Shown here: in pieces, positions 2,025-63,072 of the stretch
How positions within the stretch are numbered: the stretch's first letter is position 1
Layout of the letters: every line of letters starts with the position of its first letter
Assembly (NCBI GenBank): GCA_032372955.1
Contig: GCA_032372955.1_4725.1
Reading direction: 5' to 3' (one strand)
Length of the DNA stretch: 64,000 nucleotides
From: Escherichia coli
GTDB taxonomy: Bacteria; Pseudomonadota; Gammaproteobacteria; Enterobacterales; Enterobacteriaceae
Notes under the pieces: generated by a model
What the model was told of the DNA's origin: nothing
Database searches by the model: none
Seen by the model: only the letters and a program-made list of their open reading frames with translations
Program-made: the position numbers and the translations under genes

Positions 2025-2056
2025 CCTTCCTCCAACCCAACAGGGAAGGAGGAAGG
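2025..2056. terminator. conserved Y/R hairpin, copy 1 (inverted orientation, A:A mismatch type)
   Basis: ccttcctccaaccc-aaca-gggaaggaggaagg, followed by tttatg. It lies after gene 725-2014. Confidence 0.7.
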
Positions 2057-13261: not shown

Positions 13262-13265
13262 TATT

Positions 13266-13297
13266 CCCTCTCCCTTCCCTTACGGGTTGGGAGAGGG
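13266..13297. terminator. conserved Y/R hairpin, copy 2
   Basis: ccctctcccttccc-ttac-gggttgggagaggg, then cttatgctgtc. Confidence 0.7.
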
Positions 13298-13331
13298 CTT
13301 ATGCTGTCTTATTTCGCATTACTCCAGTTTA

Positions 13332-13356
13332 TTTCGCGACTACATTACCTAGGTGA
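13332..13356 (+). promoter_or_regulatory. conserved 25-nt promoter-like motif, copy A
   Basis: TTTCGCGACTACATTACCTAGGTGA, located 35 nt after hairpin copy 2 and ~200 nt upstream of gene 13559. Confidence 0.55.
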
Positions 13357-15006: not shown

Positions 15007-16617
15007 TTAAAATTCTAAATCAAATTGTAATTCATTACTCGGTGCTGCGTTTTCATCGAACTTGTTCCACGGACCTTTACCTCCCTCGGAGACAGGTTGT
15101 CCGCCAACCTTGCGGCAATATACTGCTTTCTTACCGTAATCATCAGGAAGCATCCCGATGGTTTGGAATGGCATCGCGAAATGTTTGTCTTCAGGTTTCG
15201 TTGAACCGTTATCCGGTTGACGGTCTTTCCCTAATGCAAAGACCTGCCAGCTTTGACGTTTGCCGGGTTCCTTAACGATATCAACAATCACTTCAAGGTC
15301 AATCTCGCGGTCAATCCCTTTACAACCATCCCAGTAACTTAAACCTGCGACCTGGTCAACGAACTCTTCATCGTTACCATCACGTGCACGCATCTTCGCA
15401 TCGGATGACAGCTGGTGTACGGTCATGCCTAAAATACGTTTAACGCTGCAGAGGTTACGGACTTTGTTAAAGAGTTCTTGGAGCCATGCGCCGGTCGGCC
15501 CATTTCTATCCAGCCCTTCCGATGAGAACATTTTCAGATAGTCAATGAACAACGCCATGACTTCATAACCCATGCGTTCGAAATGGTCGATGAGATTAGC
15601 GAGTTGTTTATAACTCATCCCATCAACACGACGCATACAAACAGAGAAACCCGCATCATTGAACACCTTCAACACATAACGTGATGCCTCGCGAGGGTCA
15701 ATCTTACGAATATCGACATATTCGCCCGTTTCCTGTTCTCGCATGTTCTTGTATATTTGAAGCGTGTTTTCTTCCACTTCGTTTTCTGTCGACAAATGAA
15801 TCAGTAATGCTTTCTTTGCTCGCTCCGGAAAAAAGAAATGGGGTTTATTGTACAGTGCCAGATGCGTGAACAGTTTTAACAACACACCTGACTTGTTCCG
15901 GTGCTGCATCGCACCAATCAGTCCTAAGGTACCGCGACGTAAAACACCGACCGACCCCAACATTTTATTAAAACCTTGCCAGCCGGTTACAAACCCACCT
16001 TCAGGACTGTTACGTTCCATCGCTTTGACGAACATACGTTCAACTTTCTCGATATCGTCTTCACTGTCAGCGATAAAGCCGTCAATCATACACGACATCT
16101 CTTCGGGATTTTCGGTATCCATTTCGATACTGTCTAGCGATAATTTCAAATTCGCCATCGCATCGAAAAATTCTTTATCCCCAAGTCGCCCGTTACTGAT
16201 ATCCATGTACGTGTTTCTAAAGGTTTCGAAAACACGACGACGGGTAATCAGATTACGTAATTCGTTGTAATAGAGTGAACAGACCTTACTGATATGAGCG
16301 TCGTCTTCGATATCGTACAGTCCGTCGGCGAGAATCTCGTAAAGATTGCTTTGCTCAAGGCAATCTAAACGTATCCTTTGTAACAACTGTTGTTTATCGA
16401 AAGGTTCCGATAATGGTTGTTCCAACATCCAATGAATGGTATTCATCAGGTTGTTGAAAACCTCTCTATCTACGTCTGTAGCGAGATGGTTTTTCGGGGG
16501 TTCGACTTTATCTAAGACGGATTTAACATGTTCGATCGTACTGGGATCGGGATGGTTCAATTGTGCATTACGAAACAGTAACGTAATAATCTTAATGGCT
16601 ATCTGTTTTGGGTCCAT
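15007..16617 (-). CDS. DnaB-family / RecA-fold replicative helicase-like ATPase
   Basis: Motifs read by eye: GAMQHRNKSG (Walker A-like), MALFIDYL (Walker B-like) and VHQLSSDAKMR (DnaB H3/H4-like). I set the start at ATG 16617 (AAGGA upstream). The track's GTG at 16701 has no RBS and would overlap the divergent gene. Confidence 0.5.
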   Translation of the reverse strand: MDPKQIAIKIITLLFRNAQLNHPDPSTIEHVKSVLDKVEPPKNHLATDVDREVFNNLMNTIHWMLEQPLSEPFDKQQLLQRIRLDCLEQSNLYEILADGLYDIEDDAHISKVCSLYYNELRNLITRRRVFETFRNTYMDISNGRLGDKEFFDAMANLKLSLDSIEMDTENPEEMSCMIDGFIADSEDDIEKVERMFVKAMERNSPEGGFVTGWQGFNKMLGSVGVLRRGTLGLIGAMQHRNKSGVLLKLFTHLALYNKPHFFFPERAKKALLIHLSTENEVEENTLQIYKNMREQETGEYVDIRKIDPREASRYVLKVFNDAGFSVCMRRVDGMSYKQLANLIDHFERMGYEVMALFIDYLKMFSSEGLDRNGPTGAWLQELFNKVRNLCSVKRILGMTVHQLSSDAKMRARDGNDEEFVDQVAGLSYWDGCKGIDREIDLEVIVDIVKEPGKRQSWQVFALGKDRQPDNGSTKPEDKHFAMPFQTIGMLPDDYGKKAVYCRKVGGQPVSEGGKGPWNKFDENAAPSNELQFDLEF

Positions 16618-35309: not shown

Positions 35310-35341
35310 CCCTCCTCCTTCCCTGTTGGGTTGGAGGAGGG
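35310..35341. terminator. conserved Y/R hairpin, copy 6 (between convergent genes)
   Basis: ccctcctccttccc-tgtt-gggttggaggaggg, then ttatg. Confidence 0.7.
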
Positions 35342-46366: not shown

Positions 46367-47260
46367 ATGGCAACTCAAGTTTCGCTTACTTTAAAAACAC
46401 CTTGGCAACTTATCGTTGATGAGATTAACAAACTCAACGCCGACACTGGTGCCAGCTTCCAATACACCGACCTTAAATACGTTCTTAAAGAAAAGAATCC
46501 TTCTGCTCCAGAAGCAACTTTAACGCTTAGCCCTGGTGATGGTACCCCTTACTTCAATAACCGTGATGTTACCTACCATCGTCTGGATCTGGCTAAATGG
46601 TTCCAGAAAATCGCTGTACGTGTTAACGTTACTGCTGACACCACCATCGGTGATGTGGTTGACCTTGTAGCTCAACGCTACGGTATGATCACACCGACCG
46701 GTGAGAAGTTCCTGGATAAAGATAAAGACATCAAAGCCGATACGTTATCTAATCCGGTTACCTTCAACGAGCATGGTATCCAGACGATCACCCTGGAAGC
46801 TAAAGAAGATTCGTTGGCGTGGTACGGCTCTGTTCAAGTTAAAGTTTATAACACCACGCTGGATCTGGCTAACATCATCAAGGTTACCAATCTGGGTAAC
46901 TTAACCTACGTTGATGAAGGCGACGGCACCAAAACGTCAGCACGTCTGTTAACCTATCCGTTAGACTTCAGTACTTACACCGCAGGTTTACAAGCTATTA
47001 CCAGCAACGATACCAAGATCGATGCAGGCTTAGCAGGTAACCTGACTACCCTGATCAAAGAGCAGACTGGTGTAAGTGATGATATCATCAATGAACTGAA
47101 AACCAATCTGCAAACAGCTACCTTTGTCTATAACGGTGCTACCACCGGGTCTACTGACAAAGGTGTTAACGCTACGTACAGCAATGTGCTGGTGCTGTCG
47201 TTAGCTGACGGTACTCACACCTACGGTAAAGCAGTATTCGGTTATAACGTTTCCGAATAA
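46367..47260 (+). CDS. paralog family B protein
   Basis: AGAGG RBS. Family motifs: TYHRLDLAKWF, LAWYGSVQVKVYN and a C-terminal HTYGKAVFGYNV. It is followed by the hairpin at 47277-47308. Confidence 0.6.
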   Translation: MATQVSLTLKTPWQLIVDEINKLNADTGASFQYTDLKYVLKEKNPSAPEATLTLSPGDGTPYFNNRDVTYHRLDLAKWFQKIAVRVNVTADTTIGDVVDLVAQRYGMITPTGEKFLDKDKDIKADTLSNPVTFNEHGIQTITLEAKEDSLAWYGSVQVKVYNTTLDLANIIKVTNLGNLTYVDEGDGTKTSARLLTYPLDFSTYTAGLQAITSNDTKIDAGLAGNLTTLIKEQTGVSDDIINELKTNLQTATFVYNGATTGSTDKGVNATYSNVLVLSLADGTHTYGKAVFGYNVSE

Positions 47261-47276
47261 TTTTAATTAATCTCTC

Positions 47277-47308
47277 CCTTCCTCCTTCCCTGTTGGGTTG
47301 GAGGAAGG
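47277..47308. terminator. conserved Y/R hairpin, copy 8
   Basis: ccttcctccttccc-tgtt-gggttggaggaagg, then tttatg. It marks the end of the structural block, just before the ORF-free region. Confidence 0.7.
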
Positions 47309-47399
47309 TTTATGTTTGTGATTATTCTTCTCTTTTATAATTTCTAATGATAAGATTAAGTACCTGGAGTAAAAGTTTACAGATGTTGTAAATGTATTT

Positions 47400-47740
47400 G
47401 GAAAGTAAAATTTCCACGACCTCGGCCCCTTCGGGGGACGGGGGAGGAGCGAAGTCCTTTAGAGACGAGCAACAGGATAACTCTAAGAAAAAGAAAAACT
47501 AAACGAGCGAAGCGAGTTTATGTTTTTATCCTTAGAGTTATCAAGCTATAAGCGTAGCGTTAGCGTATAACGGTTATGTCGTATACGAATGCAATGAGTA
47601 TAGACGAGATACTCTGATGAACAACGTGAAGAAGAGTATCACAAATGTTTTTTGAGTTATCCGGATTTAACTAGCATGTAACGAAGTGTAATGCACAGAT
47701 GACATGTGTTACCGTTAAGGTAGTAAACACATGTTATCCA
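47400..47740 (+). ncRNA. candidate structured-RNA region (array of stem-loops); strand and function unknown
   Basis: The hairpins are: 47420-47443 (10 bp, cUUCGg loop); 47476-47542 (12-bp perfect outer stem gataactctaag/cttagagttatc with an inner imperfect stem); 47579-47607; 47608-47640 (gatactct/agagtatc); and 47702-47734 (acatgtgtt/aacacatgt). There is no ORF of 60 aa or more on either strand. Confidence 0.3.
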
Positions 47741-47990
47741 TTGTTTTGAAGATAAGCTTATTAACTTACTTTTAAATCAATTTAAATATACAAACAACTT
47801 AAACATACCAAGATAAAACAATTGAACCTAAGATAAACAAGATAACTTAGACAATACACTTTTAACGAATACAGATAACATCTTACTTAAATCAAAATAC
47901 CTATCCTCGTTTACCTTCCTTGCTTGCAACACCTCTTCTAAATCCATCCCTTCTTAAGAAACAACAAAACCCTTACTGTAACACAAATCC
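47741..47990. repeat. AT-rich non-coding segment with AGATAA/GATAAC iterons and a CTTACTT(TT)AAATCAA direct repeat
   Basis: AGATAA occurs at 47750, 47811, 47831, 47840 and 47873. The direct repeats are at 47765-47780 and 47882-47895. Confidence 0.5.
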
Positions 47991-48015
47991 TTTCACGACT
48001 ATATTACCTAAGTGA
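47991..48015 (+). promoter_or_regulatory. conserved 25-nt promoter-like motif, copy C
   Basis: TTTCACGACTATATTACCTAAGTGA, located 82 nt upstream of gene 48098. Confidence 0.55.
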
Positions 48016-48097
48016 TGCGTACGTACGATGTTCGTATTGCGTCAAATAGAACTCAATACGTTGTTTAATTAACGTGAAAAACAGAGGAACTTTTTAA

Positions 48098-48880
48098 ATG
48101 AACGATGAAATCATTTTTGATACCATGTTTACTGGAGATGAATACCTGGCGTTACCGAGCGATGTTCAAAACGAATGCGTGAAGGTAGCATGCTACAGCG
48201 GCGGTCAGGCTGGGATGCGTGTACGTTGCGTTGACGGGACGAACGGGAAAGTTGTTTGGCGTGGTGCTCACACGTACCCTTACCTGCTTACCGGCAACAA
48301 GAATTGGTACGCTCATCGCAGCCAGCATCCTGCACGGATGAGCGCGAGCGGATTCGTGGTACGTGGTGCGTTGGATGAACGGGTGGAACGCATCGAGATC
48401 ACCGATCGCGCGTTCATCGATCAGCTTGCACAGGTTGCTTACGATGAGGGACGTGCAACAGGGCGATACGGTTGGTTGAAGGTGAACAGCGATACGCAAT
48501 TACAGGTAGGATTCCATCACGCGCTTCCTGGGTGGGCGAACCATACCGTTGGAACGTATTACACCAAAAAGCTTACCATGGTGAAACCTTACATGGCGGA
48601 TGCGAGCTTGGAGGCAACGGATCAGATGCATCAATTGCTTCGCATGTATTATCCACGGGTGGTGCATCCACTTGGGTTCGCTTGGGTCAGCGAAGTGCGC
48701 TACAACCCACGCAAGAAACGCGTTGAAGCGAAGGTGCTTAACGAACGTTGGTTACCGGTTGTGCAACCAGGGCTTGACGATGAATCCATCATGATGCGGG
48801 TAAGCCGAAGCCGGTTCGTACAATGGGATGCTACCATGCTACAACGCCCACAACACGTTACAGGAGAAACGTTCGCATGA
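48098..48880 (+). CDS. hypothetical protein (260 aa)
   Basis: AGAGGA RBS. It is the first gene after the ORF-free region and the promoter-like motif at 47991-48015. Confidence 0.6.
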   Translation: MNDEIIFDTMFTGDEYLALPSDVQNECVKVACYSGGQAGMRVRCVDGTNGKVVWRGAHTYPYLLTGNKNWYAHRSQHPARMSASGFVVRGALDERVERIEITDRAFIDQLAQVAYDEGRATGRYGWLKVNSDTQLQVGFHHALPGWANHTVGTYYTKKLTMVKPYMADASLEATDQMHQLLRMYYPRVVHPLGFAWVSEVRYNPRKKRVEAKVLNERWLPVVQPGLDDESIMMRVSRSRFVQWDATMLQRPQHVTGETFA

Positions 48881-49176
48881 TACGCGCAACAGGATACGAA
48901 AACAAAGGCAAGAACAGCGTGCAGCGTTACGTTGCCGACGAGGAAGGGAAAGCAGAATACCTGGATTGGTTCAACCGTTACAGCGCAAGCAAGGTACGTG
49001 ATCCTAGCATCCTGAGGTTACAGAGCAGTTTCCAATGGCAGGCTTCCGAACAACGCTGGTACATCACGTTGGAAATCGGAACGGTACGGGAAGACCAGCT
49101 TCCTGCATACTTAAAAGAACAACGGGAGCAGATCAACACATTACTCGCACAACACAAAACGGAACCTAAACCTTAA
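48877..49176 (+). CDS. hypothetical protein
   Basis: ATGA overlap with the upstream stop, with AGGAG 10 nt upstream. The track start is 48823. Confidence 0.55.
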   Translation: MIRATGYENKGKNSVQRYVADEEGKAEYLDWFNRYSASKVRDPSILRLQSSFQWQASEQRWYITLEIGTVREDQLPAYLKEQREQINTLLAQHKTEPKP

Positions 49177-49216
49177 TCCAACACCAACAAGCGAAAAGGA
49201 AAGTACAACAGAAATC

Positions 49217-49492
49217 ATGTTGATGAAACCGACAGCAAAGAACAAGGTTTATAAAGCAATCTACGCGTCAGACACAGTCAGCCTGACGAAGATCATCAAA
49301 TACAAACTTGAGAAGGTGCTACGTGTTGAACCGAGCATAGGCTTAGTCCGTTATCGCCTGATTACCGAGAACGGTGAAGGGTATTACGCACCGTCGTCTC
49401 GAAGCGATAACGCCGTTGTGTTAACCCGGGATGTGGTTGAAGCAATCAACAACGGAACGAAGGCGTTCTACGCGCACAGAAAAGCCGTATAA
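49217..49492 (+). CDS. hypothetical protein
   Basis: 91-aa ORF. The RBS spacing is long, so the start is uncertain. Confidence 0.45.
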   Translation: MLMKPTAKNKVYKAIYASDTVSLTKIIKYKLEKVLRVEPSIGLVRYRLITENGEGYYAPSSRSDNAVVLTRDVVEAINNGTKAFYAHRKAV

Positions 49493-49569
49493 CGCAATAA
49501 ACGAATCCAAAGAAGGGAAACTATACCTTAACTTAAAACGACGCTTAGAGAGCGTTACAGGAGCTTAGA

Positions 49570-49977
49570 ATGCAACATGATCAAACGAACACCACCGCAA
49601 CGTCAATAGCCCTTGCCGATGCCGTCCAGGCGTGGAACGAGAACCCAGCCTGTCGAGCAAAGATGGAATTGGTGTACGAAGGATCAACCCGTGTCAGGAC
49701 GGCTGATGATGTTCTGGTCGTACGAGGTGAATTCTTCGCCTTAGGTGTCACGGACCGTGGTCCGTTAGATGCGCTTTGGATCGAGTTACAAACCTGCCCG
49801 CAGAGACCACGCTACGTGACCCGTGACCATCGTCCTGAGAACGCGTTGGTCGGAACCGGTTCCGTGGATATTTTCATCTGGCAGGATACCCTCGACAACA
49901 TGAACAAGATGATCGACGTTGAGAACATCGTTGCAAATAAGTTAACCCAACTTAAAGAACGTCTGATGCCGCTATAA
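49570..49977 (+). CDS. hypothetical small protein, possible distant member of the tandem family at 50090-51341
   Basis: AGGAG 6 nt upstream. VLVVRGEFFALGVTDRGPLDALW resembles the strand-turn-helix motif of the next three genes. Confidence 0.5.
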   Translation: MQHDQTNTTATSIALADAVQAWNENPACRAKMELVYEGSTRVRTADDVLVVRGEFFALGVTDRGPLDALWIELQTCPQRPRYVTRDHRPENALVGTGSVDIFIWQDTLDNMNKMIDVENIVANKLTQLKERLMPL

Positions 49978-50035
49978 CGCATCAACATCACCCGCCTGTA
50001 CCTCATCGTGTTCGGGCGGGGCAATAAGAAACCAA

Positions 50036-50053
50036 GGGGACATCGCCGTCCCC
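50036..50053 (+). terminator. short GC hairpin between genes 49570 and 50090
   Basis: ggggac-atcgcc-gtcccc. It has no clear U-tract. Confidence 0.3.
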
Positions 50054-50089
50054 GTTACTATCATCAACCACTATCAAGAGGAACCTACC

Positions 50090-50533
50090 ATGGAAATTAA
50101 ATTCTGTAAATCGATCGCGATTGTACCTGAACAACCTGCGGATGATCTCGAAAAGCTCGATCATCCCACACTGCAACATGCGCTGGAACGTTTAGCCTCT
50201 TTTGCGCCGTTAGAGAATCATCTTCACTGCGTTAATCTTGAAGCATCCGACTTCGACGTGAAGCTTGGGTTCGTGTTTTCACAAACGGGGAAGGATGTGT
50301 TAGAAAACATATTCTGGTCTGCTGAGCATAAGGCGAGAAATGTGATGACGAAGTTAGTTTATAACGTTAGCCTTAGTGAAGACGGCACCTATTGGACGTC
50401 AGAGGCTTGCTGGACGATTTCTGCGATTTCACGAATGGACAAAATACACTATTTGCATCGTGTTGCTGATAGCATTGTACACCAACTGGATCGTTTTGAT
50501 ACCACCCGCTTATCGAATGGAACACAGTGTTAA
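50090..50533 (+). CDS. small tandem-family protein
   Basis: AGAGGA RBS. VKLGFVFSQTGKDVLENIFW aligns with the P2 and P3 motif. Confidence 0.55.
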   Translation: MEIKFCKSIAIVPEQPADDLEKLDHPTLQHALERLASFAPLENHLHCVNLEASDFDVKLGFVFSQTGKDVLENIFWSAEHKARNVMTKLVYNVSLSEDGTYWTSEACWTISAISRMDKIHYLHRVADSIVHQLDRFDTTRLSNGTQC

Positions 50534-50548
50534 TACGAGGAATCGAAC

Positions 50549-50977
50549 ATGCAAATTAAATGGCCTGAATCAGCAGTAACTGCAGCGCGCGTTGGTCTTT
50601 ATCATTCGCTGGTTGCTCAGCATACCAGCTTACATCGCACCCTATCACTTTTACGCGAAGACGAAAAACTACGTGAACACATTCAGCCGATCTCAGCATC
50701 AATGAATGCGAACACGTTGTCTATGCGTTGCGTTCGATTGACTTTTGTGTGTACCACGTTAGGAAAGACGTTGCTTGAGGCTGCCTATCTTCGTTGTTGC
50801 GAAAGCACGACGTTCACCGACGATATGGTGTTGTCGATCGAGATGTATTGTCAGACAAATGGAATACGTCAACCGCAGATAGTTTGGAAAATATACGGAT
50901 TGACACCAAAAGTAATCAGCACGAAGTTAGATGCGGTTGCTAATAGCCTTAATGAAATTTTGAAAGAAGGAATTTGA
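50549..50977 (+). CDS. small tandem-family protein
   Basis: GAGGAA RBS. RCVRLTFVCTTLGKTLLEAAY aligns with RCILTFTCTKKGVTVIRDVW of the next gene. Confidence 0.55.
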   Translation: MQIKWPESAVTAARVGLYHSLVAQHTSLHRTLSLLREDEKLREHIQPISASMNANTLSMRCVRLTFVCTTLGKTLLEAAYLRCCESTTFTDDMVLSIEMYCQTNGIRQPQIVWKIYGLTPKVISTKLDAVANSLNEILKEGI

Positions 50978-50978
50978 T

Positions 50979-51341
50979 ATGCAACAACGTATCGGTTTAT
51001 CGCTCGCCATTGACCGACTGATCAAAGTCTCATCGTTACGAAGTGAATTTGTTGGCGTCCGTGAAGAAGCGGCGAATAACCGCTGTATTTTAACGTTTAC
51101 GTGTACCAAGAAAGGCGTGACGGTTATCCGTGATGTTTGGGACGCTGTGAACAAACGTGAACCCCGCTGCTCGGTATCTGTCGTTGATTACAAAAACCTG
51201 GATAATACTTACACTATCCGTTTAGAATGGGAGCATCGCCTCAGGACATTCGTTGAAGTTCGGTCGAAGCTGTTAGCTGAATTGTTGAACGAAGCCTGTT
51301 TACGTGACGAGAACGCTACAGAACTCTTCAGAACGCTTTAA
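50979..51341 (+). CDS. small tandem-family protein
   Basis: It starts 1 nt after the previous stop, with AAGGAA upstream. It shares the motif described above. Confidence 0.55.
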   Translation: MQQRIGLSLAIDRLIKVSSLRSEFVGVREEAANNRCILTFTCTKKGVTVIRDVWDAVNKREPRCSVSVVDYKNLDNTYTIRLEWEHRLRTFVEVRSKLLAELLNEACLRDENATELFRTL

Positions 51342-51447
51342 TTCAATCTTAGATAAGGAAACCCCTTAGAAATTAAAACAAACCGTTATACGTCGTTCTG
51401 TGACGTTTAAGCTATACATTGAACTCATGGCAATCGAGGAAAGAAAA

Positions 51448-51837
51448 ATGTTAAATTCAACTTTTACCCACTATCTCCACACCTATGCAAAATTATGCTG
51501 CGTTGACATGGAAGAGCTCGCGAACGATAATACTGTTCGCGATTGTGAGATGCTTCCTAAGCGACAAGGTTTTCTACCCGGTTCGCGGTCAGCGGCGTTC
51601 TTCTTAATCGCTTACTTCATCGTTAGTCATAGTGCGGCGCTGTTGAGCCAAACCAAGAAACAGCGAAAGGATTACGCTACCGCAATCACTCAAGTTTATT
51701 TCGATCGTCTTCACGGACGTGCAGTGAGTATCGATACCGCGTTAACGACCGCGTTTCGTCATCGAGGCGCAACCGCGGTACAGCTACCTGCTTTGGTTAA
51801 GATCGGAAAAGAAATCATCCAGAATGCAACGCGTTAA
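51448..51837 (+). CDS. hypothetical protein
   Basis: I chose ATG 51448 as the start (GAGGAAAG 8 nt upstream); the track start is GTG 51400. It contains a hydrophobic stretch, AAFFLIAYFIVSHSAALL. Confidence 0.45.
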   Translation: MLNSTFTHYLHTYAKLCCVDMEELANDNTVRDCEMLPKRQGFLPGSRSAAFFLIAYFIVSHSAALLSQTKKQRKDYATAITQVYFDRLHGRAVSIDTALTTAFRHRGATAVQLPALVKIGKEIIQNATR

Positions 51838-51852
51838 TAAATAAACCATAAA

Positions 51853-51888
51853 CCTTCCTTCCCCGGCCTTTACGGCTAGGGAAGGAGG
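51853..51888. terminator. conserved Y/R hairpin, copy 9 (variant, between convergent genes)
   Basis: ccttccttccccggcc-tttac-ggctagggaaggagg. TTTATG is on the minus-strand flank (51847-51852), and a T-run lies at 51903-51909. Confidence 0.6.
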
Positions 51889-51907
51889 TTGTATAGCATT
51901 TCTTTTT

Positions 51908-52996
51908 TTATTGGAACGGGTCTGTACGACCGCTGCCACGATCTACACCACCGTGATCGTGGGTGTATACGTTTGTTCCGGTTGGTGAACGCCAAGAGCC
52001 TGCGATGTGTATGAAGTTCCCATTCAACGTCATCGTGTTCCCGTCTTCACCTGTGAAGCTTACAGCTCCAGTGAATACCGTATTAGGACATTTGAACGTG
52101 GTCTGTCCTGATACTTGCGCGGTGTAGCGATCACACTTCAAAGAAACATTCTGGCTCGTAACGCTTTCTGTTTTACTGGTACGCTCGAAGTTCTCACATT
52201 CGGTATAAATGTTTTTTGCTTTCATTCGGATATCGTTCTTAGCAATTGCTTTGAGCGTATCCTCGCATTGGAATGTGATGTTCTTTTTTGTCACGTCGAT
52301 GATGCTGTCGTCCTGGTTTTGATAACGCAGCATATGCTCGACAAAATGGAGTAACAGCAGATTTTGATGGACGCTGTCCGCAACCTGTAGGTAACCCTCG
52401 TCCAGATTAAGTTCCATGTAGACTTGGGTAACTTCACCAAGCTGTGCGCTGGTGCCGATAACCGCTTTCTTGAGGAAAGTATCAACCATTAGGTAATAGC
52501 AGTCTTCCGTTGAAATCGATTTACGGTCCTTCTTGGCGCTAGGACGTGCGCTGATGGTGAGGATAACCGATTCCATGGTCATCAGCTCGCTATCCCCTCC
52601 TTTGGGCTGCCAGTATAGCTGTTCTTCATCGGCGGTACGCCAGACCACCACACGCTGACCTTTCCTCAAGTTAGGTGCTGTCATCCGGTTACTGCCGAAG
52701 GGTAACCAGTAACACTGTACGCTGGTTGTTGTTGCCGCTTTCGCCGTATAACTGTTCCCTTGAGCGTCTGTTGCACTGACTTCTTTCACGCTTCCCGCCG
52801 CTTCAACTTTCCCGTCAGCACCTGACATCATCTCATCAAGAAAGACCTCCAGCGCCTGGTTAGGATCTTCTTCCAGACTTTTATTGGAAAAGTCGGCAGC
52901 AACAGTACCCAAGGCAAAGATACGGAAAACGCTTACGTTGTTGTCTGGAGCTAGCTGACTCCCTTTTGTGCGATTGTCTGTTGCCAGATCGCTCAT
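51908..52996 (-). CDS. baseplate central spike / gpV-like (P2 gpV, Mu gp45 class) protein
   Basis: AGGAG 8 nt upstream. An OB-like segment, WLPFGSNRMTAPNLRKGQRVVVW, resembles the P2 gpV N-domain. The C-terminal apex VYTHDHGGVDRGSGRTDP resembles gpV HTHKHPGDSGGTTGSP (HxH metal-binding tip). Confidence 0.6.
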   Translation of the reverse strand: MSDLATDNRTKGSQLAPDNNVSVFRIFALGTVAADFSNKSLEEDPNQALEVFLDEMMSGADGKVEAAGSVKEVSATDAQGNSYTAKAATTTSVQCYWLPFGSNRMTAPNLRKGQRVVVWRTADEEQLYWQPKGGDSELMTMESVILTISARPSAKKDRKSISTEDCYYLMVDTFLKKAVIGTSAQLGEVTQVYMELNLDEGYLQVADSVHQNLLLLHFVEHMLRYQNQDDSIIDVTKKNITFQCEDTLKAIAKNDIRMKAKNIYTECENFERTSKTESVTSQNVSLKCDRYTAQVSGQTTFKCPNTVFTGAVSFTGEDGNTMTLNGNFIHIAGSWRSPTGTNVYTHDHGGVDRGSGRTDPFQ

Positions 52997-60492: not shown

Positions 60493-60517
60493 TTTTCACG
60501 GCTATATTACTTAAGTG
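60493..60517 (+). promoter_or_regulatory. conserved 25-nt promoter-like motif, copy D
   Basis: TTTCACGGCTATATTACTTAAGTGA, located 24 nt upstream of ORF 60542. Confidence 0.55.
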
Positions 60518-63040: not shown

Positions 63041-63072
63041 CCCTCCTCCAACCCAACAGGGAAGGAGGAGGG
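63041..63072. terminator. conserved Y/R hairpin, copy 11 (inverted orientation, A:A type)
   Basis: ccctcctccaaccc-aaca-gggaaggaggaggg. TTATGCCGTC is on the minus flank (63031-63040) and AATATG on the plus flank. Confidence 0.7.

Follow-up and report, generated by a model that had tools for sequence, protein, structure and literature searches.

A candidate non-coding RNA gene and an early-promoter spacer at a late/early gene boundary of a Goslar-like jumbo phage

Small non-coding RNAs (ncRNAs) are known from phiKZ and 201phi2-1, which are nucleus-forming jumbo phages like the one considered here. These RNAs, detected by dRNA-seq and ONT-cappable-seq, are short and are bounded by a phage promoter and a nearby terminator (e.g. 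sRNA005 upstream of a tail gene; PMC11512511, PMC8244752). A part of them is shared by related phages, and no function is known for them. We analysed a window of 64,000 nucleotides (nt) of DNA (GenBank assembly GCA_032372955.1, contig GCA_032372955.1_4725.1) that is, by its sequence, a relative of Escherichia phage vB_EcoM_Goslar, and examined a gap of 837 nt (47261-48097) that is free of open reading frames (ORFs). Within this gap lies a very conserved, structured block of 285 nt, which we describe as a candidate RNA gene. The ncRNAs of phiKZ and 201phi2-1 are shorter than 250 nt and mostly derived from 5' untranslated regions, whereas the Goslar-type RNA is predicted only, and would be free-standing and far more structured. 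No sequence similarity was observed between them and the block (blastn, 50,697 phage records).

A precedent for structural phage RNAs is the pRNA of phi29, a phage-encoded, multi-helix RNA of ~170 nt that is part of a protein machine. The block has no sequence or structural similarity to pRNA (the Rfam search was negative), and nothing ties the RNA of the block to packaging.

An earlier note on this DNA had drawn attention to GATAAC/GTTATC and AGATAA repeats in the gap and had proposed a possible replication origin or a DNA-protein assembly site; the conserved block, which is the main feature of the region, had been overlooked. We favour the view, to which we assign a probability of about 0.6, that the gap is a composite late/early boundary with a new ncRNA gene and an early-promoter spacer, and not an iteron origin. 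The proposed order on the plus strand would be the terminator of a late virion gene, the ncRNA gene, a dispensable hairpin, an AT-rich spacer, and a pyrimidine-rich (CT) element with the early promoter (Table 1).

Conservation and distribution of the 285-nt block

Goslar was the sole match to region 47200-48150 among the phage records, and the window aligned to Goslar 1-50,000 with 95.6% identity over 50 kb. Goslar, a member of the Chimalliviridae, is a jumbo phage that forms a nucleus, and its homologous gap of 854 nt is the largest true intergenic gap of the genome. We aligned the gap first in four genomes and then in 23 Goslar-like genomes (from IMG/VR, ENA, NCBI, Logan and JGI). In the four-way alignment of 10.9 kb, the longest invariant run was 298 nt (47349-47646) and the next longest was 80 nt. 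The block was found in all 23 Goslar-like genomes, with 26 of 279 columns variable. Its conservation is far above that of the flanks: identity to the divergent clade B was 95% in the block, compared to 75-80% in the neighbouring gp022, 67-72% in the spacer and ~61% (nucleotide identity) in the gp021-like gene. The conservation collapses directly after the 3' T run (U run in the RNA) of the block.

The block is present in a single copy in the Goslar genome (NC_048170, within 15,430-15,720 on the minus strand). A blastn search for paralogues in that genome yielded none, but only chance matches of 11-15 nt and a 12-mer motif that is described below. The block is conserved without coding potential, above neutral and above the flanking coding DNA. 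A small protein was considered as an explanation and rejected; the largest ORF (47392-47502, 36 amino acids) lacks a ribosome-binding site, and between the clades it has three substitutions, of which one is synonymous and two are non-synonymous. A host or plasmid origin of the block was also rejected, as no match was found in 5,426 E. coli genomes and 72,556 plasmids. When IMG/VR, JGI metagenomes and GTDB genomes were scanned for exact patterns, all hits were in Goslar-like contigs, to which the block is restricted. A relative of ~50% identity (L009) has no block; the syntenic site is occupied by an early-type promoter and an ORF for a small membrane protein.

Short pieces of the block were seen elsewhere. 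An identical 23-nt mini-hairpin, TAAACGAGCGAAGCGAGTTTATG, is present in an otherwise unrelated large viral contig (L032:4990-5015; IMG/VR contig 3300046005_000547, 234,735 nt), and another unrelated contig (L033:10145-10170) has 20 nt in common with the GCGAAGC hairpin of the block. In both contigs the similarity is confined to this GCGAAGC hairpin (20-24 nt). This likeness may be due to chance or to a widespread stable hairpin/terminator module.

Could the uniformity of the block arise from recent exchange between phages, and the hexamer cluster from chance in AT-rich DNA, so that nothing specific is encoded here? Identical runs of 300-660 nt do occur elsewhere between the window and Goslar in the pairwise comparison, mosaic variants of the block exist, and the GATAAC cluster has a genome-wide P of ≈0.17. 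However, in clade-B genomes the block keeps 95% identity next to flanks with only 61-80%, and compensatory changes are present across the 23 genomes, which come from many samples. A recent sweep is disfavoured because it would yield neither covariation nor a strand-asymmetric fold, and we consider this explanation highly improbable.

The mosaic blocks were observed in L011 and L034 (columns ~107-220), where a 5' part of clade-B type is joined to a 3' part of clade-A type, or vice versa. Breakpoints of recombination therefore lie inside the conserved block, which forms the divide between a structural module that is conserved and an early module that is hypervariable.

Predicted fold and ends of the RNA

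The block folds in a strand-asymmetric manner. The plus strand of 47400-47653 gave a folding energy of -79.4 kcal/mol (z=-5.8) and its complement -62.9 kcal/mol (z=-4.2); across the fold runs, z was -5.8 to -7.1 for the plus strand and -4.2 to -4.5 for the minus strand. A cUUCGg tetraloop and several G·U pairs are formed on the plus strand only. The consensus structure from RNAalifold comprises 84 pairs, distributed over 12 helices. In 11 distinct sequences, 99.8% of the paired cells were paired and three pairs were changed on both sides (overall range of paired cells, 99.6-99.8%). The covariation score was 0.047 as against 0.033±0.003 for the shuffles, none of which (0/500) reached it, and 0.006-0.017 for slid controls. 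Among 13 distinct sequences, six of the nine variable pairs were always paired. Single transitions in the stems keep G·U or Watson-Crick pairs on the plus strand and make A·C mismatches on the other strand.

Substitutions in individual hairpins mostly preserve the structure. In the bipartite hairpin 47420-47443, the pairs 53:74 and 54:73 alternate between C-G, U-G and U-A; in L028, a U·G of this hairpin is turned to U-A and the UUCG loop is swapped for CGAA. The best covariation was observed in the hairpin 47578-47605, the tip of which occurs in five variants (AU/UA+GCA, AU/CG+GCA, GU/CG+GCA, GC/CG+GAA and AU/UA+GUA). In every variant the stem is paired and the triloop is GNA, with pairs 221:227 and 222:226 changing on both sides. 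The loop swaps, UUCG to CGAA and GCA to GAA or GUA, preserve stable loop types. We argue that constraint in the loops as well as in the stems points to extensive protein or RNA contacts.

In the long hairpin 47476-47542, helices 7 and 8 are invariant in all genomes. Its tip consists of a GA-flanked GCGAAGC mini-hairpin followed by UUUAUGUUUUU, which forms a terminator-like module, t1 (47501-47530). The tail of t1, GTTTATGTTT, is the same as that of the gp022 terminator (a direct repeat). We also observed that 47475-47489 can pair with 47648-47662 in an alternative, mutually exclusive helix, which is of 11 bp and perfect in clade B. This alternative helix could be a conformational switch, an attenuator or the relic of an internal duplication.

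Table 1. Coordinates of the features in and around the gap (positions in the window)
Feature	Coordinates	Strand	Basis or remark
Intrinsic terminator of the gp022-like late gene, 14-bp GC-rich hairpin then TTTATGTTTGTG	47277..47320	+	inverted repeat
Very conserved 285-nt block (candidate promoter and candidate ncRNA)	47369..47653	+	multi-genome alignment
Near-palindromic 12-mer GTAAAAGTTTAC, candidate middle/late promoter element or operator	47369..47380	+	exact 5' edge of the block
Predicted ncRNA, ~250 nt	47395..47653	+	fold, consensus structure, covariation; predicted 5' end ±10 nt
Bipartite hairpin, cUUCGg tetraloop cap	47420..47443	+	pair switches
Long hairpin, outer helix GATAACUCUAAG / CUUAGAGUUAUC	47476..47542	+	inverted repeat; helices 7 and 8
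Hairpin with tandem G·A pairs and GNA triloop	47578..47605	+	best covariation evidence
Terminal hairpin (helix 12), 8 bp, invariant 17-nt loop (47616-47632), then ACAAAUG and U run of 5-9 (t2)	47608..47653	+	
GAGTTATCC, second copy of the helix 3' arm	47654..47662	+	inverted and direct repeats; kept in 8/11 genomes
Dispensable hairpin then CAUUGUUUUG (t3)	47697..47748	+	inverted repeat
AAGATAA(A/C) array, within the genome's most AT-rich DNA	47749..47879	+	cluster unique in genome
Pyrimidine-rich (CT) segment	47900..47957	+	retained in all relatives including L028
Candidate early-type (virion RNA polymerase) promoter TTTCACGACTATATTACCTAAGTGA	47991..48015	+	recurrence upstream of genes
Ribosome-binding site (AGAGGAA) and gp021-like gene, 260 amino acids, opening the early ORFan operon	48083..48880	+	ORF list

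Comparisons with known RNAs did not assign the block to a described family. An Rfam scan of the region at E≤10 gave only a chance-level match (E=4.8), a scan of the whole window gave nothing at gathering score (Rfam 15), and ARAGORN found no transfer RNA or transfer-messenger RNA. The Goslar and chimallivirus literature searched contains no mention of an ncRNA or an origin at this locus; published Goslar RNA sequencing (RNA-seq) was analysed per annotated gene (PMC10541120, PMC13648698). The block may thus represent a new family of phage-encoded structured RNA, confined to Goslar-like phages. Shorter (~130 nt) or longer (~350 nt) forms of the RNA are possible.

The free-standing RNA gene of ~250 nt would begin probably 20-30 nt past GTAAAAGTTTAC, the 12-mer that marks the 5' edge of the block. 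This 12-mer has four exact copies in Goslar, at 15717 (-), 81200 (+), 173098 (-) and 176758 (+), compared to about 0.03 expected, and a fifth copy with one mismatch at 188964. One of the copies is located ~110 nt upstream of the chmA early-type promoter and another precedes an HNH gene. Downstream of two of the copies there is no gene on the same strand, so that these two might promote antisense or non-coding transcription or act as operators. In phiKZ, the middle promoter is described as an A-rich repeat together with TACT, located ~22 nt ahead of the start site, and chmA has both an early and a middle promoter (PMC8244752). By analogy, GTAAAAGTTTAC may be a promoter element that resembles the phiKZ middle motif, which would place the 5' end of the RNA near 47395-47402. 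A scan for sigma-70 promoters and standard terminators gave matches no better than chance. Phages of the Goslar type do not use the host polymerase, and the RNA is probably made by the phage non-virion RNA polymerase.

The region upstream of chmA was also compared. Its ~300 nt are virtually identical in three genomes (L041-L043:300-600), with substitutions only >~215 nt from the start codon, and the ~300 nt contain both promoter-type motifs and a possible structured leader. The conservation of GTAAAAGTTTAC at chmA is uninformative as a promoter test because the whole 300 nt is invariant there.

At its 3' end, the RNA would stop at one of two or three hairpin-plus-U-run modules. The hairpin of the gp022 terminator, which is invariant in four genomes, belongs to a 32-mer family, CCTTCCTCCTTCCC-TGTT-GGGTTGGAGGAAGG, with four copies in the window (2025-2056 (-), 35310-35341 (+), 47277-47308 (+) and 63041-63072 (-)) and a variant at 13262-13300. 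Terminators throughout the phage share a signature, namely a GC-rich hairpin with TTATG(C/T)TGT behind it. The 3' hairpin and U-run modules of the block match this signature of the phage, and are predicted terminators. Several Logan contigs of Goslar-like phages stop ~35-50 nt from the gp022 stop codon, at or beside the 32-nt repeat, which is probably an assembly break.

We considered whether the block acts as a DNA-level assembly site, i.e. a pac site or a hairpin-extruding protein-binding site, and not as an RNA gene. Conservation is seen in the loops and not only in the stems. GNA triloops, GCGAAGC mini-hairpins and tandem G·A pairs also have high stability when formed by single-stranded DNA, so that a DNA-level hairpin element is conceivable. 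The Goslar genome is circularly permuted (PMC6563267), which implies headful packaging that may start at a pac site. On the other hand, the fold is strand-asymmetric with its UUCG tetraloop and G·U pairs, stem transitions are tolerated on the plus strand only, no terminase gene is located nearby, although pac sites usually lie in or close to such genes, and the 285 near-invariant nt far exceed known pac or operator sites. A DNA-level site is very unlikely on this evidence.

Apart from the stability of these motifs in DNA, several observations weigh against an RNA gene. We infer the transcription of the block, the ends of the RNA, the polymerase class and the function from DNA sequence. Three of the nine variable pairs are broken in one or two sequences, the covariation comes from few independent events in 2-3 of the 12 helices (helices 2, 4 and 11), and the tested structure was derived from the same sequences as the covariation test. 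The covariation support is real but thin. The U runs are located 5-8 nt past their hairpins, which is atypical for intrinsic terminators, and GTAAAAGTTTAC is nearly palindromic, so that it may be an operator instead of a promoter. Exchange between phages, with the breakpoints of L011 and L034 inside the block, could contribute to its uniformity. Upstream of chmA, too, non-coding DNA does not vary among three genomes; strong non-coding conservation is therefore not unique to the block, yet at that site the flanking genes are conserved to the same degree.

The AT-rich spacer, the early promoter and the case for an origin

The earlier note had listed GATAAC at 47476, 47841 and 47874 and GTTATC at 47537, 47656 and 47733, together with AAGATAA at 47749, 47810, 47830 and 47839 and CAGATAAC at 47872. 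All of these coordinates were confirmed. The estimate that well under one such hexamer is expected by chance was overstated, since GATAAC is abundant across the whole window: we counted 84 copies of GATAAC/GTTATC compared to 36±6 expected from dinucleotide shuffles, a ~2.3-fold excess. When the observed number of copies was placed at random, six copies in 405 nt had a P of ≈0.014 within the window and six copies in 515 nt a P of ≈0.17 across the Goslar genome. A coding stretch near 49.7 kb of Goslar is equally dense. The excess is window-wide, and the Goslar genome has 320 copies; its cause could be codon pairs or a recognition/avoidance signal.

Each of the six hexamers can be assigned to a hairpin, to a duplicated hairpin arm or to the AT-rich repeats. 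A single 12-bp helix (47476-47487 / 47531-47542) has those at 47476 and 47537 as its arms, GTTATC at 47656 is a duplicate of the 3' arm of this helix, and GTTATC at 47733 is an arm of the second, dispensable hairpin (47697-47738). Only the hexamers at 47841 and 47874 belong to the AT-rich AAGATAA(C) repeats. The GATAAC/GTTATC copies are not iterons, because four of the six are in or beside hairpins and their clustering is not significant genome-wide.

The AGATAA cluster, on the other hand, is genuine. Five plus-strand copies occur within 130 nt (P≈3e-4). This density is unique in the genome, and the runner-up has 3 copies. The AT-richness of this DNA is stronger than had been claimed: the 47-48 kb bin has the lowest GC content of the window (0.377), and the homologous 250 nt are the most AT-rich stretch of the whole 237-kb Goslar genome (73.2%, compared to 68.8% for the runner-up). 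The direct repeat CTTACTT(TT)AAATCAA, of 14-16 nt, is present at 47765 and 47882 as reported, but is not conserved in more divergent relatives.

The spacer varies strongly among the relatives. Measured from the U run to the early promoter, it is 115-437 nt long and different in 17 of 18 genomes. AGATAA is the commonest 6-mer of these spacers, with 78 copies on the plus strand and at most one minus-strand copy per spacer. The number of AAGATAA copies ranges from 0 to 6 and their positions are unconserved; in the window the core is 7-8 bp and the spacings are 61, 20, 9 and 33 nt. The t3 hairpin, though present in most genomes, has been lost by deletion from L004 and L028, and clade B has a rewritten loop in it. 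L028 has neither the array nor this third hairpin, and keeps the pyrimidine-rich segment and the promoter. The behaviour of the array fits a slippage-prone spacer or optional binding sites, and not an essential iteron array.

A classical iteron origin, in which GATAAC/AAGATAA would bind an initiator and the adjacent AT-rich DNA would be unwound, was the proposal of the earlier note. Iteron origins (lambda ori, P1 oriR, plasmid oriV) have direct repeats beside an AT-rich segment, as is the case here. Their iterons are ~17-22 bp in length, have regular spacing and a stable copy number, and are usually located in or beside the initiator gene. The Goslar repeats differ in having a core of 7-8 bp, spacings of 9-61 nt, 0-6 copies and no recognisable initiator nearby. 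The proposal gains from the position of the most AT-rich 250 nt of the genome in its largest true non-coding gap, from the unique and strand-specific AAGATAA cluster, and from the fact that no chimallivirus origin is described in the literature searched. The part of it that stands is that this is the most easily unwound DNA of the genome. The hexamers are not iterons, and the comparison with relatives, which had been suggested as a check on the spacing, revealed an irregular, unconserved arrangement with none of the repeats in L028. The adjacent genes code for a DUF7941 virion protein and for ORFans without a family match, and none of them is a recognisable initiator or replication gene. The cumulative GC skew has no inflection at the locus; it mainly tracks gene orientation and is uninformative as an origin signal. 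The origin reading is weakened by these results, and we regard an iteron origin as quite unlikely.

An origin of a different type was also considered, in which a persistent RNA-DNA hybrid of the structured RNA would be processed by an RNase H-clamp into a leading-strand primer at the AT-rich DNA. In ColE1 (RNA II), at T4 ori(uvsY) and ori(34) (R-loops) and at the T7 primary origin (promoter plus AT-rich DNA), a promoter-driven transcript lies beside easily unwound DNA, as is predicted here, and RNA II, too, is a multi-hairpin RNA, one that depends on its fold. The layout of a candidate promoter, a structured RNA with GGGGGACGGGGGAGGAG in its G-rich 5' part and the most AT-rich DNA of the genome would suit such a mechanism. 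No primase can be identified in chimalliviruses, Goslar requires an RNase H-clamp subunit for its replication, and the authors of that work speculate that RNA-DNA hybrids might start replication (PMC13648698). A non-coding RNA beside a candidate origin of a large DNA virus with a nucleus-like compartment is also reminiscent of the herpesvirus oriLyt RNAs, e.g. RNA4.9 of human cytomegalovirus (PMC7185721) and the oriLyt R-loops of Kaposi's sarcoma-associated herpesvirus; these are GC-rich, kilobases long and have no homology to the block, and the link to replication is hypothetical here.

In the ColE1, T4 and T7 origins, however, the transcript enters the origin, whereas two or three terminator-like modules (t1, t2 and t3) stand between the Goslar-type RNA and the AT-rich DNA, so that the transcript is predicted to stop short of the region to be invaded. 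The AT-rich array is variable and is missing in L028. We therefore consider a transcript-primed origin unlikely. If true, both an origin and a mechanism of priming would be defined for the first time in the Chimalliviridae.

We return to the view of the gap as a late/early boundary with an ncRNA gene and an early-promoter spacer. The fallback suggestion of the earlier note, a cluster of regulatory signals at a late/early boundary, fits the evidence, as a late-gene terminator is located to its left and a probable phiKZ-type early promoter to its right. What had been listed as a promoter-like motif (motif C) turned out to be the early-type promoter motif of 47991-48015, which recurs upstream of genes. 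It has three copies in the window (13332-13350, 47991-48009 and 60494-60512, all on the plus strand), each 30-90 nt before an ATG, and takes the form TTTCRCGRCTAYATTACYT(nn)GTGA. In Goslar, it has 7-10 copies, all on the gene strand and shortly before start codons, and a core variant, TTTCAGGGTTATATTACCTAGGTGA, is found upstream of chmA. The 5-min transcript of chmA, an early gene, starts within 91 nt of the ATG (PMC10541120). Like phiKZ-type early promoters (PMC8244752), the motif is AT-rich and conserved, and its upstream part is T-rich. From its sequence and placement, TTTCACGACTATATTACCTAAGTGA is likely a phiKZ-type early (virion polymerase) promoter, and the CT segment is probably its upstream element. 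The promoter would drive the ORFan operon on its right, and the AT-rich repeat spacer would insulate and flank it without being essential.

Antisense control of early mRNAs by the RNA was tried as an explanation and rejected, since its comparison with ten early-promoter leaders revealed no excess complementarity (z -0.9 or weaker).

The gene on the left of the gap is the gp022-like virion structural gene (DUF7941), and the gp021-like gene on the right is the first in a run of small ORFans. None of the right-hand ORFans, including the gp021-like gene, has a Pfam or PHROG match. The early ORFan operon (48098-52000) is hypervariable, with ~61% nucleotide identity among relatives and >100 variable columns per 200. 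Together with the lack of Pfam/PHROG matches, this is a pattern typical of host-takeover or anti-defence genes.

The sole gap of comparable size in Goslar (82,470-83,288) was found to hold the 3' exon of a split DNA polymerase gene. Goslar ~82,990-83,200 codes for the C-terminal ~60 residues of the published DNAP-N (...FRKLGINFITGGKTNAVDF...ARTIE; PMC13648698; L020:31190-33200 = Goslar 81,190-83,200). It follows that gp068, the polymerase gene, is interrupted by an intervening sequence in which the NUMOD1/HNH gene gp069 is located. The Rfam group I intron models scored below the gathering score on this intervening sequence.

Implications for nucleus-forming jumbo phages

Among nucleus-forming jumbo phages, Goslar serves as the E. 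coli model, and its published RNA-seq has been read gene by gene. The existing RNA-seq can be re-mapped to the candidate RNA, and knockdown tools are already working in this phage (dCas13d, antisense oligos). The analysis also defines three classes of Goslar signals that can be used for annotation, namely the terminator family, the early promoter motif and the second recurrent 12-mer.

Our guess is that the RNA is a stable ribonucleoprotein RNA or a regulatory RNA, which would be made in the phage nucleus in middle/late infection. It might take part in the timing of transcription, in the movement of RNA across the phage nucleus, in anti-defence or in the priming of replication. The predicted RNA evolves 4-5 times slower than the adjacent structural gene. 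This slow evolution, its retention in every Goslar-like genome examined and its location in the largest non-coding gap indicate that it is very likely important.

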